From a virus: a stretch of DNA of 64,000 nucleotides. The stretch lies in the IMG/VR virus record IMGVR_UViG_3300020021_000003, positions 1,877 through 65,876 of that record. One strand, given 5' to 3'. Under the pieces are notes generated by a model, which did not search any database, was not told the DNA's origin, and was given only the letters and a program-made list of their open reading frames with translations. The translations under genes and the position numbers were made by a program. This document shows, in pieces, positions 35,869 to 39,369 of this stretch. Each line of letters begins with the position of its first letter. The first letter of the stretch is position 1.

Positions 35869-35891
35869 ATAAAGGATTCTGTAGAATCCAG

Positions 35892-35971
35892 TGGAACTGC
35901 TGGGATTCGAACCCAGGTGCTGATAACTTCCGACTTGCGGTTTTTACTACCAGACGAAACCAACCAGCCCC
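35892..35971 (-). ncRNA. Mini-tmRNA (tRNA-like domain only)
   Basis: GGGGCTG-GTT-GGTTTCGTC 5' end, G3:U70 pair, no D stem, helix CTGGTAG/TTATCAG, canonical T arm and A73. Confidence 0.7.
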
Positions 35972-35972
35972 G

Positions 35973-36041
35973 CTATATTACACACAGGACAATTACCAGC
36001 AGAACTGCTAGTACAAGCCACAGTGCTTCAAGTGCGTTCAT
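35973..36041 (-). CDS. 22-aa hydrophobic peptide
   Basis: AAGGAGG RBS, MNALEALWLVLAVLLVIVLCVI. Confidence 0.5.
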   Translation of the reverse strand: MNALEALWLVLAVLLVIVLCVI

Positions 36042-36131
36042 ATTATCCTCCTTGTAGATGCAGGGTACCAAGCCTCCTGCTCCTGGGTCAACGAATAACG
36101 TTCCATCTCCGTAGAAATCCCAGCCCTTACG

Positions 36132-36202
36132 TACCCGCTGAGGGAATCGAACCCCCGTCTTTGGTGTGTAAAACCAAGGCCCTCCCATTAGACGAAGCGG
36201 GC
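36132..36202 (-). tRNA. tRNA-Val(TAC)
   Basis: Loop TTTACAC, cloverleaf. Confidence 0.88.
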
Positions 36203-36225
36203 AATACCCTTTCGGGCGATACTGC

Positions 36226-36411
36226 TTAAAACAATCCTGTACCTTTTAGCATATTAGCATATAGAATTTCTATTTCATTTGTATCTAGCCACTGGATCTT
36301 TACTATTCGTGATCCTTGCCAGTCGTACTCGTCTTCCAGCACACGAGCCTTGCGGTTACGTGGACCGAATGCTCCGTCACCTTCACGGAGAGGTGTACGT
36401 CTACCAAACAC
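36226..36411 (-). CDS. Small hypothetical protein
   Basis: GTG start behind AGGAG, 61 aa. Confidence 0.5.
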   Translation of the reverse strand: MFGRRTPLREGDGAFGPRNRKARVLEDEYDWQGSRIVKIQWLDTNEIEILYANMLKGTGLF

Positions 36412-36412
36412 A

Positions 36413-36559
36413 TTATCTCCTTGTAAGCTGTGCTTCAGTAAATAATCTGCCATTGACTTTGTACTTGCATAGTCCATGCATGCATTCACGAGCAGTTATC
36501 TTACCTTCACCACCCTGATAGGAAACATGGTCTCCGATATTGAATTTATATCTGGACAC
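36413..36559 (-). CDS. Small SH3/KOW-like protein
   Basis: GTG start behind AGGAGG, KFNIGDHV motif. Confidence 0.5.
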   Translation of the reverse strand: MSRYKFNIGDHVSYQGGEGKITARECMHGLCKYKVNGRLFTEAQLTRR

Positions 36560-36747
36560 TATACCTCCTGAGTAGTTTGGTGGTATCCCCTGAATTTGAA
36601 TCAGGAACTTCGTGCTTATGGCCCGATCGGTTAATAGATCTACTGACAATCTACCCAACTAGTACACAAACCTTCACTGTCGCTACCACGGCCGATCCAC
36701 GACGGTTCGTCAGTTTATGCTTTTCACAGCTTACCTACAGAATACCG

Positions 36748-36820
36748 TACCCCTGACTGGATTCGAACCAGCAATTTTCGGCTTAGAAGGCCGTTGAGTT
36801 GTCCCTTACTCTACAGAGGC
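36748..36820 (-). tRNA. tRNA-Arg(TCT)
   Basis: Loop CTTCTAA, cloverleaf. Confidence 0.88.
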
Positions 36821-36907
36821 ATACGTAACAGACCTATTGTATCCGCTTCTCCTTCAGTCTGCTACTTCCAATTCGGGGAAGGAGCTGACGGCCCCAAATT
36901 TAAAACT

Positions 36908-37345
36908 TTAATCCCACCAGCCGTACCAATCGTACTTGGAGTCAGTATAGATGTCAACTTCTTCCCAGTCTCCGTCCAGCAAAGCTTCTCTGATCTGCTG
37001 TCTCACTTTAGAGCGGATAGCTCCGTTTGTCAACTGCTTGATATCCTTGTTGCTTCGGATGTTCGGGTAGTACTCAAGCCAGTGACAGCAGTGCTTATCG
37101 TCTCGGTATCTTGAATCGTTAGGACTTTCGGGAAGGTCCAGAGTACAGTCTACATACTCAGACCAGCTATTGTAAATACCAGCCATGTACCAGACTACTT
37201 CGTTGCCGTAGCCGTCCTTACGCATGATAGGCTCTTCACCGATTCGTTCCCTATGGGTAACCAAGTGATGATGGTACGCATATCGGTCCATCTTAGGATC
37301 ATTCTTGAGAACCCAATAAGGACGGTCCTTGAGTGTGCGAGACAT
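36908..37345 (-). CDS. Hypothetical protein
   Basis: 145 aa, GGAGG RBS, MSRT.K.RPYWV start. Confidence 0.65.
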   Translation of the reverse strand: MSRTLKDRPYWVLKNDPKMDRYAYHHHLVTHRERIGEEPIMRKDGYGNEVVWYMAGIYNSWSEYVDCTLDLPESPNDSRYRDDKHCCHWLEYYPNIRSNKDIKQLTNGAIRSKVRQQIREALLDGDWEEVDIYTDSKYDWYGWWD

Positions 37346-37377
37346 ACAAACCTCCGATAGTGCTAGGAGTTCTTACG

Positions 37378-37413
37378 TGTCGGTAGAGGGATTCGAACCC
37401 CCGACTTCCTCAC
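37378..37413 (-). pseudogene. 3' half of split tRNA-Arg(ACG)
   Basis: GTGAG-GAAGTC-T arm-TACCGAC-A. Acceptor strand is perfectly complementary to GTCGGTA at 37979. Confidence 0.8.
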
Positions 37414-37436
37414 CAACTGAGTAGACGCTTTTAACG

Positions 37437-37512
37437 TACCCCTGACTGGATTCGAACCAGCATGTGTCCATTAACCTTTCAACGCGTTCGTAGCGCGAGG
37501 GTATACAGAGGC
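37437..37512 (-). tRNA. D-armless tRNA-Arg(ACG)-like element
   Basis: Acceptor GCCTCTG/CAGGGGT, anticodon arm CGCG-CTACGAA-CGCG, canonical T arm, no D stem. Confidence 0.55.
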
Positions 37513-37935
37513 AGGACCAGTCCACCATCCAAACTGCTCAAAGGTCTTTCTCCTGTGACAGTTTGCACATAGTACCTGGCATTTATCAATCTCAGCTTGA
37601 ACAGTCTCAATCTTAGAGACATTCTTGGCTGCTTCACTAATGTTGAACGATTTGATAGAAGGATCTAGATGATCAAACTCTAGCATACGTGGATCAGTTT
37701 CACCACAGTGAACACAAGGATGATCAAGTAAGTAGCTCCAGACGTACTCTCGTATTATCTGTATATATCTTAGATCGTTCTTTCTAGCCTTGTCAAGATA
37801 GACTTGCTTGTTAGCTGTGTAATGATCCCTGTTGTATTGGTTGTGGCAGGGCTTACACATTGAGCTTTTCGAAGCAAACTCACTTAATGGCTTTTCGATA
37901 CTGCACTTGCTACATGTCTTCATGCTATTAATCAT
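37471..37935 (-). CDS. HNH homing endonuclease
   Basis: N-terminal CxxC...CxxC, then CVHCGE..LEFDH...CQVLCANCHRRKT. Confidence 0.9.
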   Translation of the reverse strand: MINSMKTCSKCSIEKPLSEFASKSSMCKPCHNQYNRDHYTANKQVYLDKARKNDLRYIQIIREYVWSYLLDHPCVHCGETDPRMLEFDHLDPSIKSFNISEAAKNVSKIETVQAEIDKCQVLCANCHRRKTFEQFGWWTGPASVYPRATNALKG

Positions 37936-37941
37936 AGCACG

Positions 37942-37979
37942 TTCGTAGGCAAGTGCTCTATCCGCTGAGCTATACCGAC
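37942..37979 (-). pseudogene. 5' half of split tRNA-Arg(ACG)
   Basis: Exactly positions 1-38: GTCGGTA TA GCTC AGCGGATA GAGC A CTTGC CTACGAA. Confidence 0.85.
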
Positions 37980-38001
37980 AGAGCCCCGAAGGGCTTGATA
38001 C

Positions 38002-38286
38002 TTAGTATTGAATTTGTTCTCCGTTGATATAGAGAACATATCCCTTGGGAAGCCCAATGTCAACTCGTCCAGCCCGTTGCTTTACAGTGACGCCACCAGC
38101 CTGAGTAATGCTGATGCTGCTGTTGTCACTGAATACATTATTGTAACTTCCAGCCCCAGCAGTACGATTACCCGTTCCTCTTACCTTAACACTACTATTT
38201 GTTCCAATAGCGTTGCCAGTGATATTCCCACCAGCTTGAACGATCGTGCTGTTCTTGCCGCCACGAGCCCTCTGAAAAATCTGCAC
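38002..38286 (-). CDS. Gly-rich hypothetical protein
   Basis: 94-aa ORF, likely beta-solenoid-like. Confidence 0.6.
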   Translation of the reverse strand: MQIFQRARGGKNSTIVQAGGNITGNAIGTNSSVKVRGTGNRTAGAGSYNNVFSDNSSISITQAGGVTVKQRAGRVDIGLPKGYVLYINGEQIQY

Positions 38287-38293
38287 TGTGCTC

Positions 38294-38779
38294 CTATTCA
38301 GTGAACGGAATCAACTGTCCTGGTGTTACTAGGCTTGGCAGTCTGTCATCAGTGAAGAGATGAACACCGGCCATGCTGTACACGTAGTCCACAATCTGAG
38401 AACAGATCATGTGCTTTGATTTCACTACTCTAGCAGTCAAGAAGGGCACTGGCAAGTGGAACCTCTTGGCCGCAATAGCAAAGTAGTCCAGGAAGCTGTA
38501 TGGGACGCCCTTGAGAGCTGCTGCGTAGTCTATGATGTCCTTGCGCTGTTCGATCGCCAGGGGCACCGTAGAGACCCGTACAGAGGCATACTTGGAGGCA
38601 TCAGAGACGATCGCACCACCAGGCATAGCTTCAAGGATCTTTCCGTTGTACATGTAGATGAAAGCGTGCTCATAGTTCTTGAAGCCGTCTCCGTTAAGCC
38701 ATTGGCCTAATCGGATGAGAAAGCCTACTCCACCAGGAATACTTGTTAAGCCGAAATCTCCTGGCTGGGCGTCTCTCAT
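38294..38779 (-). CDS. Permuted papain-like NlpC/P60 (YiiX/YaeF-like) protein
   Basis: PGD..L, YEHAFIY, G.PYSF and ICSQIV motifs. Confidence 0.8.
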   Translation of the reverse strand: MRDAQPGDFGLTSIPGGVGFLIRLGQWLNGDGFKNYEHAFIYMYNGKILEAMPGGAIVSDASKYASVRVSTVPLAIEQRKDIIDYAAALKGVPYSFLDYFAIAAKRFHLPVPFLTARVVKSKHMICSQIVDYVYSMAGVHLFTDDRLPSLVTPGQLIPFTE

Positions 38780-38796
38780 ATCTCTCCTCGTTAAAG

Positions 38797-38869
38797 TGCT
38801 GGCAGCAGGGATCGAACCCGCAGAATTTCGATTAAAAGTCGAATACCGTAGCCATTTGGTTATACCAGC
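38797..38869 (-). tRNA. tRNA-Lys(TTT)
   Basis: Loop CTTTTAA. Confidence 0.88.
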
Positions 38870-38895
38870 ATACAGCCCTTTCGGGCCGGTCGAAC

Positions 38896-39369
38896 TTACT
38901 TGCCTGTACCAGCCTGTGCAGTGATGGTAGGAACGCCACCCTGTCCATCAGGGACATAGATAACAGTGTTGTTCTTTCCAGACTGTGCAATAGCCTGTAG
39001 CGCCTGAATCTGCTCCCATTGAAGATACATGGGGGTCAGGGTCTTGGCAATCTCATCCTGTGCCCTACGGACACCTACAGCCTGCTGGAAACGAATGTCA
39101 GCCTGCTGTTCAGTAACCTGAAGCTGTTGCTTCTGGTTGGAAATTTCGATCTCAGTCACTTGGACCTTGTTGTTCGCGGCGATAATCGCGTTCTTAGCAG
39201 CGTTGTTTGCCTTGATGGTAGCATTCTGTGCATTAGTATTCGCATTCTTAGTACTCTGTGAACGGTTGAAATCACTGCAACCAGCAACACCACCAGTCAA
39301 AATACCACCTGCAACCACAACGACGACTAGCCAACTAGCAGCAACAGCAAGGGGATTGGACTGTGCCAT
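38896..39369 (-). CDS. Membrane-anchored coiled-coil protein with SPFH-like C-terminus
   Basis: N-terminal TM helix, I...LTP.YLQWE.I.AL...NNTVIYVP. Confidence 0.6.
   Translation of the reverse strand: MAQSNPLAVAASWLVVVVVAGGILTGGVAGCSDFNRSQSTKNANTNAQNATIKANNAAKNAIIAANNKVQVTEIEISNQKQQLQVTEQQADIRFQQAVGVRRAQDEIAKTLTPMYLQWEQIQALQAIAQSGKNNTVIYVPDGQGGVPTITAQAGTGK

Follow-up and report, generated by a model that had tools for sequence, protein, structure and literature searches.

What kind of RNA gene lies on the minus strand at positions 37437-37512 of our window, the 64,000-nt stretch of virus DNA that we analysed? The window belongs to a 101-kb virus record in IMG/VR and carries, at 34.6-44.7 kb, a minus-strand array of 30 canonical tRNA genes called by ARAGORN, none of which is an intact canonical tRNA-Arg(ACG). 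The gene in question has an ACG anticodon loop and had been described, in the original prediction made from the letters of the window, as a D-armless chimeric tRNA-Arg whose D-loop-like sequence follows the anticodon arm. From comparisons with a family of similar sequences in phage tRNA arrays, we consider it quite likely that this gene encodes a functional tRNA-Arg(ACG) with a rewired core, representing a structural class specific to phages.

Parts of the gene and its chimeric ends

Read along the minus strand from 37512 to 37437, the gene consists of GCCUCUG, UAUACCCU, CGCG-CUACGAA-CGCG, UUGAAAGGUUAAUGGACACAU, GCUGG-UUCGAAU-CCAGU, CAGGGGU and a final A. Its parts, together with the canonical gene whose ends it shares, are as follows:

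37437-37512 (minus): candidate rewired-core tRNA-Arg(ACG), 76 nt; detected over its full length by our own covariance model, R1, at 88.2 bits
37512-37506 and 37444-37438 (minus): acceptor strands; discriminator A at 37437
37498-37505 (minus): 5' linker UAUACCCU, with U8 and A9 equivalents, a spacer and ACC (37502-37500)
37483-37497 (minus): anticodon arm, with a 4-bp CGCG/CGCG stem, the loop CUACGAA and the anticodon ACG at 37491-37489
37462-37482 (minus): segment UUGAAAGGUUAAUGGACACAU, with a UUGAAA connector, the D-stem strand GGU(U) (equivalent to nt 10-13) and a D-loop-like part
37445-37461 (minus): T arm GCUGG-UUCGAAU-CCAGU, with C56 at 37454, the same sequence as the T arm of tRNA-Arg(TCT); 4 of its 5 pairs covary in the family
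36747-36820 (minus): canonical tRNA-Arg(TCT), called by ARAGORN and scoring 59.8 bits in Rfam; putative partner in an acceptor/T-arm exchange

All 7 acceptor pairs and all 5 T-stem pairs form, the T loop has 7 nt, and the 7-nt anticodon loop has U33 and a purine at 37 (A37), as in tRNA-Arg(ACG); a conserved U.U flanks the anticodon stem. Between the acceptor and anticodon stems there are only 8 nt, and a local D arm (10-13 paired with 22-25, plus loop) is missing. The linker trinucleotide ACC (37502-37500) is the equivalent of the D-stem strand nt 23-25, and its partner GGU lies at 37476-37474, behind the anticodon arm. This GGU(U) is followed by A14-A15-U-G18-G19-A20-C-A, with G18G19 at 37469-37468 and A20 at 37467, and then by C-A-U48.

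Standard tools pass over this gene. ARAGORN did not call it, even at relaxed thresholds, with -ps80 or in -mt mode, and the Rfam tRNA model RF00005 did not match it at E values up to 10; the sole Rfam match was to tRNA-Sec (18.6 bits, E 2.9). We rejected the idea of an ordinary tRNA with an alternative cloverleaf on the same grounds, namely the missing ARAGORN call (relaxed or mitochondrial mode) and the missing RF00005 match. The core motif has an expectation of 0.00 by chance, as judged from 100 shuffles of the window. The window copy carries all 23 columns that are invariant in the family, and is the single family copy in its genome.

The ends of the gene match a second gene. In an alignment, 37513-37504 (10 nt) and 37462-37435 (28 nt) are identical to 36821-36812 and 36773-36746, respectively, of the neighbouring tRNA-Arg(TCT). 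Exact matches of this length to another gene in the same locus are confined to the window copy among 99 family members: it has 26 nt within the element, or 28 with the flank, compared with at most 18 for the others. We therefore rejected the sharing of acceptor and T arm with a co-resident tRNA-Arg as a rule of the family. As the match to tRNA-Arg(TCT) covers the T arm and both acceptor strands, pairing is kept in the window copy. The pattern resembles that of patchy gene conversion between two neighbours at a distance of 690 nt, by which the acceptor stem and T arm would have been swapped at a later stage. The shared acceptor starts with GCC, as does that of tRNA-Arg(TCT) in the syntenic relative L142, whose rewired tRNA starts with GCG; this weakly suggests that tRNA-Arg(TCT) was the donor and that conversion would have run towards the rewired gene.

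A family with a shared fold

A BLASTN search of phage records matched the middle of the element to places without annotation within tRNA arrays, both of Streptomyces phages (Mildred21 and relatives) and of Microbacterium phage A3Wally, in copies whose acceptor, anticodon and T stems differ in sequence yet pair. Motif scans of IMG/VR, phage records, and species genomes or contigs of metagenome-assembled genomes (MAGs), in which matches had to possess well-formed acceptor and T arms, expanded this set to at least 195 distinct sequences in phage tRNA arrays. Their common layout is acceptor, UAN, a 3-nt strand, NU, a 4-bp stem with a 7-nt loop, UNGAAA, a complementary 3-nt strand, UA, R, Y(1-3), GG, N(3-5), CAY, T arm, acceptor. 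The covariance model R1, built on 99 family sequences, gave the members examined 76-96 bits and canonical tRNAs at most 29 bits. Anticodons are limited to those of Arg and Ile and to CAT, which would be Ile2 or Met: TAT occurs 69 times, ACG 64, GAT 35, TCT 14, CAT 8, TCG 3 and CCT 2 among the 195 sequences. When 185,579 species genomes were scanned with the core motif, 9 of the 11 matches were genuine members, and all 9 were on MAG contigs with 2-23 canonical tRNAs within 8 kb, the pattern of a phage array. We rejected a cellular origin of the family because every one of these members sits in such a dense array on a MAG contig.

Annotators have met members of the family without recognising the class. 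In Mildred21 (MF155946.1; 91367-91442 and 86379-86453), a rewired tRNA-Arg(TCG) directly behind an HNH endonuclease gene is annotated as tRNA-Phe(gaa), a diverged relative with a TCT loop (36 bits) is annotated as tRNA-OTHER, and an ACG form at about 94857-94933 is unannotated in GenBank. Queries of the full-text literature, including motif queries, found no description of the class, in a body of text that leaves most subscription journals outside its coverage; a 2020 review of non-canonical tRNAs leaves phage or permuted forms unmentioned.

More distant or damaged relatives were also seen at L005:89-170 (minus), L006:3297-3371 (minus) and L010:1888-1953 (plus). One of them, a TCT form (35 bits), has a long-range helix of 4 bp, GCCC/GGGU, and a connector of 11 nt; another, a TCG form (59.5 bits), is 1 nt shorter and has a 2-bp GC/GC helix; and one copy has no 3' acceptor strand. 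Given these relatives, the family is wider than the motifs that we used.

Does the family conserve a fold? In the 99-sequence alignment, 99.5% of helix cells are paired, compared with 68.7% after shuffling and 33-49% when partners are slid against each other. Fifteen of the 19 helix pairs change on both sides: all 4 anticodon-stem pairs covary, and the acceptor and T helices covary as well. The remaining helix is a long-range equivalent of the D stem, in which 3 nt of the 5' linker pair with 3 nt after GAAA and so enclose the anticodon arm. The first alignment shows no variation in this helix, since the search motif itself prescribed it. With less strict scans, covering the 195 sequences, we recovered nine pair combinations, namely ACC/GGU (109), CUC/GAG (39), CCC/GGG (26), CGG/CCG (9), CCG/CGG (3), UCC/GGA (3), CGC/GCG (2), GCC/GGC (2) and CUC/GGG (1); a single member is imperfect and the other 194 are fully paired. 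We rejected the alternative register CCU/AGG proposed by RNAalifold, since the CCG/CGG and CUC/GAG variants pair only in the ACC/GGU register.

Covariation extends to the contacts that hold the elbow of a tRNA together. The GG of the transferred segment changes in step with T-loop positions 55-56 in all 195 sequences, with 181 GG/UC, 11 GA/UU, 3 AG/GC and no discordant case; in other words, a T loop reading UUC goes with GG, UUU with GA and UGC with AG. The 11 GA cases include ACG and TCT forms and several different acceptor stems. We also compared the base two positions after the long-range helix (R15-like) with the base just before the T stem (Y48-like). This pair is A:U in 165 sequences, G:C in 16, discordant (A:C or G:U) in 10 and another combination in 4 (Fisher p 5e-15, ignoring kinship), and the G:C cases are spread over five anticodon classes. 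The equivalents of U8 and A14 are invariant in the family. These patterns suggest that the contacts G18:psi55, G19:C56, R15:Y48 and U8:A14 are kept.

The string GGUU-A-R-Y-Y-G-G is colinear with canonical positions 10-19, and the simplest description of the architecture would be that nt 10-21 have been transferred from between nt 9 and 22 into the variable region, at roughly nt 45/46. The RNA is not D-armless, because equivalents of both the D stem and the D loop are present in that new position. The original prediction called the gene chimeric; this holds only for the acceptor and T arm, and the gene is one copy of a widespread phage family, not a chimera that arose once. Its proposal that the GG segment behind the anticodon arm acts as a D loop is supported by the covariation with the T loop, by the R15:Y48-like pair and by the base after GG (see below); its D-armless label does not fit the covarying 3-bp helix ACC/GGU. 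The chain would run from U8-A9 through the nt 23-25 strand, the anticodon arm, UNGAAA, the equivalents of nt 10-21 and CAY48 to the T arm, with the D-stem strands pairing around the anticodon arm, the D-loop GG docking on the T loop and R15 pairing with Y48. Base triples in yeast tRNA-Phe link positions 9-12-23, 45-10-25, 46-13-22 and 8-14-21. The new junctions 9 to 23, 45 to 10 and 21 to 46 therefore connect nucleotides already in contact in the canonical fold, which makes an unchanged L shape sterically reasonable; the rewired tRNA should retain a normal L.

The HNH gene and the split tRNA-Arg(ACG)

Why is this gene where it is? The rewired gene lies within an insert that interrupts a canonical tRNA-Arg(ACG) exactly between nt 38 and 39. 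The insert spans 528 nt and consists of an 18-nt leader, an open reading frame (ORF) for a putative HNH endonuclease, the rewired tRNA and 23 nt resembling the start of another tRNA:

37942-37979 (minus): 5' half (nt 1-38) of the canonical tRNA-Arg(ACG), a partial tRNA match in Rfam
37924-37941 (minus): leader from the split point to the conserved HNH start, with a predicted hairpin holding the AUG
37471-37935 (minus): putative HNH endonuclease ORF, 154 codons; relatives conserve the ATG at 37923 as its start
37414-37436 (minus): right end of the insert, 23 nt (CGUUAAAAGCGUCUACUCAGUUG), with an acceptor strand and a D-loop motif as read from the sequence
37378-37413 (minus): 3' half (nt 39-76) of the canonical tRNA-Arg(ACG); its acceptor UACCGAC fully complements GUCGGUA at 37979-37973

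The 5' half comprises the acceptor strand, the D arm, one anticodon-stem strand and the loop. When 37979-37942 and 37413-37378 were joined in silico, they formed a 74-nt cloverleaf that ARAGORN called as tRNA-Arg(acg), with an anticodon loop, CUACGAA, identical to that of the rewired gene. We also considered, and rejected, a single decayed tRNA at 37436-37378 that would have lost its anticodon arm, as the exact join with the 5' half accounts better for 37413-37378. In several family members, UAAAAGCGUCU is the sequence of the 5' flank and acceptor.

The ORF scores 19.8 bits against the Pfam HNH model, under the cut-off of 21.4. Its homologues, with 41-54% amino acid identity, lie directly upstream of family members in L142 (54%), Mildred21 and A3Wally, and those of the two phages are annotated as HNH endonucleases. 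In these phages, the loop heptamer of the cognate tRNA occurs just upstream of the HNH gene: CUACGAA for the ACG form in A3Wally and CUUCGAA for the TCG form in Mildred21. The window's HNH frame stops at the TAA within GGUUAA (37473-37471), 42 nt into the RNA gene, such that its last 14 codons lie inside the tRNA gene. Three particulars of the original prediction, the end identities with tRNA-Arg(TCT), the loop match to the split gene and the end of the HNH frame within the gene, all hold. The motif, for which it had suggested a search downstream of HNH genes in other phages, does follow such genes in L142, Mildred21 and A3Wally; in the family at large, they are upstream of just 7 of 114 members.

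This association is nevertheless greater than that of canonical tRNAs. In the same loci, an HNH-family ORF ended within 60 nt of the gene start for 7 of 114 rewired and 10 of 1193 canonical tRNAs (odds ratio 7.7, p 3e-4). We rejected HNH as a constant partner of the family, given the 7 of 114 and the HNH genes that abut canonical tRNAs too. In L096, L101, L112, L129 and other loci, HNH-family ORFs often reach 7-53 nt into the canonical tRNA gene that follows. The overlap with the rewired gene is not special, because HNH frames enter canonical genes in this way as well; where they do, 5' processing of the tRNA would remove the stop codon of the endonuclease message.

L142 shares with the window the order of its tRNAs as well as the 5' half, the leader, the HNH gene and the rewired tRNA, and no 3' half of the split tRNA is present in it. 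Between the two, the stretch from the D arm through the anticodon stem to the leader, as well as the tRNA core, is nearly invariant, and the 5' acceptor strands differ. This pattern fits co-conversion beside a homing site, with distal sequence specific to the recipient; it would also fit selection on the structure of the leader. A comparison of 37885-37979 (minus) with L142:3231-3327 (minus) shows far stronger conservation in the 5' half and leader than in the HNH coding DNA. In the fold predicted for 37885-37979, GCACUUGC, from the old D/anticodon-stem strand, pairs with HNH codons 5-7 in a helix around the leader hairpin, and the start codon sits in the inner hairpin. The fold is kept in L142 through one-sided changes only, in a comparison of two sequences, and may serve in translational control of the endonuclease. 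We found no insert-free close relative; L292, which is not a close relative, carries a tRNA-Arg(ACG) that has no interruption and closely resembles the split gene in the region of the D arm and anticodon stem. In A3Wally (L002, 1572-1665), a decayed stretch resembling a tRNA 3' half (GGGUUCAACUCCCC...CGCCA) occurs about 95 nt after the rewired tRNA, a remnant that fits a cassette once located within a tRNA gene there also.

The insert invites comparison with group I introns of bacterial tRNA anticodon loops, in which a loop is likewise interrupted precisely by an insert carrying an endonuclease ORF. Unlike those introns, the window insert has no ribozyme, and L142 has no 3' half to be spliced. 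We rejected a group I intron since no Rfam intron family matched 36000-39000 at E values up to 10 and the insert is too small: outside the HNH ORF it has about 75 nt, most of which is the rewired tRNA. A spliced or trans-assembled split tRNA was rejected on account of the missing ribozyme, the missing 3' half in L142 and the presence of a rewired tRNA with the same anticodon. The closest precedent is SegB of phage T4, a free-standing endonuclease within a tRNA cluster that cuts within the tRNA genes of related phages and promotes the inheritance of itself and the flanking tRNA genes (PMC2330249). The two systems share an endonuclease gene amid phage tRNA genes. They differ in that SegB is a GIY-YIG enzyme encoded between intact genes, whereas here an HNH gene lies inside a tRNA gene at 38/39, and in that the window insert, known here from sequence alone, brings a replacement tRNA for the same codons.

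We suggest that a cassette of leader, HNH gene and rewired tRNA entered, or persists in, the canonical tRNA-Arg(ACG) gene at 38/39, perhaps moving by homing, and that the rewired tRNA would stand in for the gene destroyed by the cassette. A more specific proposal, which we put forward tentatively and regard as rather doubtful, is that the three parts form a mobile, non-splicing substitute for an intron, whose own tRNA gene is immune to the endonuclease. The enzyme would cut canonical tRNA-Arg(ACG) genes near nt 38/39, the unit would be copied into the break, and the phage would survive since the rearranged gene of the replacement tRNA has no target site. The architecture could then have spread through phage arrays as protection from endonucleases that target tRNA genes.

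Function, rival readings and neighbouring RNAs

Is the rewired RNA used as a tRNA? The base after GG, equivalent to position 20, is A in 80 of 80 Arg forms and U in 111 of 112 Ile/CAT forms, in agreement with the D loops of canonical tRNA-Arg (A) and tRNA-Ile (U). A20 acts as a major identity determinant for the arginyl-tRNA synthetase (ArgRS) of E. coli. The discriminator is A in all 112 Ile/CAT forms. The genes also behave like members of their arrays: the nearest canonical tRNA is on the same strand in 135 of 135 cases, at a median distance of 102 nt, and an encoded CCA is present or absent as in the co-resident tRNAs in 130 of 135. A canonical tRNA with the same anticodon is rare in the same locus (ACG 1 of 59, GAT 3 of 32, TAT 2 of 25, TCT 0 of 8), and the window and L142 have near-complete tRNA sets, each without an intact canonical tRNA-Arg(ACG). 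The family would thus fill an absent isoacceptor slot in its arrays, which indirectly supports a use in translation. We propose that the RNA is excised from the array transcript, receives CCA, is charged by ArgRS through the A20 equivalent, C35 and G36, and is used on the ribosome as its neighbours are. Such processing, charging and decoding are probable on the strength of these comparisons.

Several observations weigh against a working tRNA. Folded as a single sequence, the RNA shows no greater stability than shuffles do (z -0.82), the anticodon stem has just 4 Watson-Crick pairs with a conserved U.U closing it, the D-stem equivalent has just 3 pairs, and the covariation counts ignore shared ancestry. 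The restriction to Arg and Ile/CAT anticodons is without explanation. Because the HNH frame extends 42 nt into the rewired gene, the HNH message would be cut by 5' processing of the tRNA; and, as about 94% of members have no adjacent HNH gene, the cassette story leaves the architecture as such unaccounted for. One rival reading is a processed, tRNA-like RNA that acts outside translation, perhaps as a decoy for anticodon nucleases, for tRNA-targeting defences or for loop modifiers of the TadA/TilS type. No tRNA known to work in bacterial translation has such an architecture, the short anticodon stem is closed by U.U, the limitation to Arg and Ile/CAT loops might be due to specific enzymes by which those tRNAs are attacked or modified, and phage tRNAs that counter tRNA-cleaving defences are documented (PMC11555353, PMC11464382). 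A decoy for enzymes that recognise the loop, however, would have no need for an A20 or U20 that matches the synthetase, for A73 in all Ile forms, for the CCA habit of its neighbours or for a preserved elbow and Levitt pair, and the family occupies an absent isoacceptor slot in its arrays. On balance, we regard a decoy as unlikely.

Other readings place the significance of the element in DNA or mRNA, or deny it any. The element could serve the HNH gene as a 3' end or terminator, a homology arm or an immunity site, and be tRNA-like by descent from the target. The HNH frame ends inside the rewired gene here and in L142, L074 and L087, the cassette splits a tRNA gene of the same anticodon, and HNH adjacency is enriched about 8-fold. 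This reading appears very unlikely to us: 107 of 114 members have no upstream HNH gene, HNH frames enter canonical tRNA genes likewise, and it is RNA pairing that is under selection, with compensatory changes in four helices and three tertiary pairs. The element might instead be a dead scar of recombination, with tRNA-Arg(TCT) ends and a scrambled tRNA-Arg(ACG) middle left by the landing of the HNH gene, as the identical ends and the other tRNA fragments nearby (37979-37942, 37436-37414 and 37413-37378) might suggest. The family data contradict a scar, which we hold to be highly improbable: the middle is not scrambled and matches the consensus of at least 195 distinct sequences from unrelated phages, and all 7 pairs survived the acceptor exchange.

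A functional rewired tRNA would have much in common with canonical bacterial or phage tRNA-Arg(ACG) (RF00005). Both have a 7-bp acceptor with discriminator, a GUUCGAAUC-type T loop, the loop CUACGAA, 76 nt, U8, A14, G18G19 paired to psi55/C56, R15:Y48, A20 and a place in a tRNA array. They differ in that nt 10-21 of the rewired tRNA lie behind the anticodon arm, which the D stem encloses, that it has 4 + 3 bp instead of 5 + 4, and that standard finders miss it. Circularly permuted tRNA genes, whose processing restores a canonical mature tRNA, were reportedly described in Cyanidioschyzon merolae by Soma et al. in 2007. The order of segments in the gene is non-canonical in both cases; in the alga the whole gene is permuted, whereas the rewired tRNA has normal ends and an internal rearrangement that is presumably kept in the mature RNA. 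D-armless mitochondrial tRNAs have lost the D arm and usually also the elbow contacts between the D and T loops. The rewired RNA resembles D-armless metazoan mitochondrial tRNA-Ser(AGY) in the short linker between acceptor and anticodon stems (PMC7609411, PMC4013460). Unlike these tRNAs, it has a D-stem equivalent, a full D-loop sequence and covarying elbow pairs, and is not organellar.

To our knowledge, the chain order of the cloverleaf is among the most conserved features in biology; the exceptions that we know of lose arms or alter helix lengths, and none re-threads the chain while keeping arms and contacts. If the rewired RNA is charged and decodes, then a second strand topology also suffices to build the L shape, and is accepted by ArgRS, IleRS, RNase P, the CCA-adding enzyme, EF-Tu and the ribosome alike. 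The tRNA repertoires of phages would be systematically under-counted, with at least 195 genes missed or misnamed as tRNA-Phe(gaa) or tRNA-OTHER, tRNA finders and Rfam would need a new model, and the scaffold would be a natural candidate for engineered tRNAs. The setting in the window adds a testable idea, that of conflict between homing endonucleases and tRNA genes.

Two further RNAs or RNA-like stretches lie nearby on the minus strand. At about 36575-36650, a T-arm-like CCUGA-UUCAAAU-UCAGG followed by GGAUACC-A-CCA has the appearance of a tRNA 3' part with encoded CCA; no proper 5' half is visible, neither Rfam nor ARAGORN made a call, and the stretch overlaps an 81-codon ORF. At 35889-35971, an 83-nt RNA gene matches only the tRNA-like domain of transfer-messenger RNA (tmRNA; Rfam tmRNA 39.9 bits, E 5e-15), with 8 nt where the mRNA-like part of roughly 296 nt would be. 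The alanine identity pair, G3:U70, is present in its acceptor stem. L142 has a copy, conserved at about 95%, that ARAGORN calls as tRNA-Cys(gca); no tRNA-Cys was called in the window. The RNA may be a 'mini-tmRNA' or an odd Ala or Cys tRNA.

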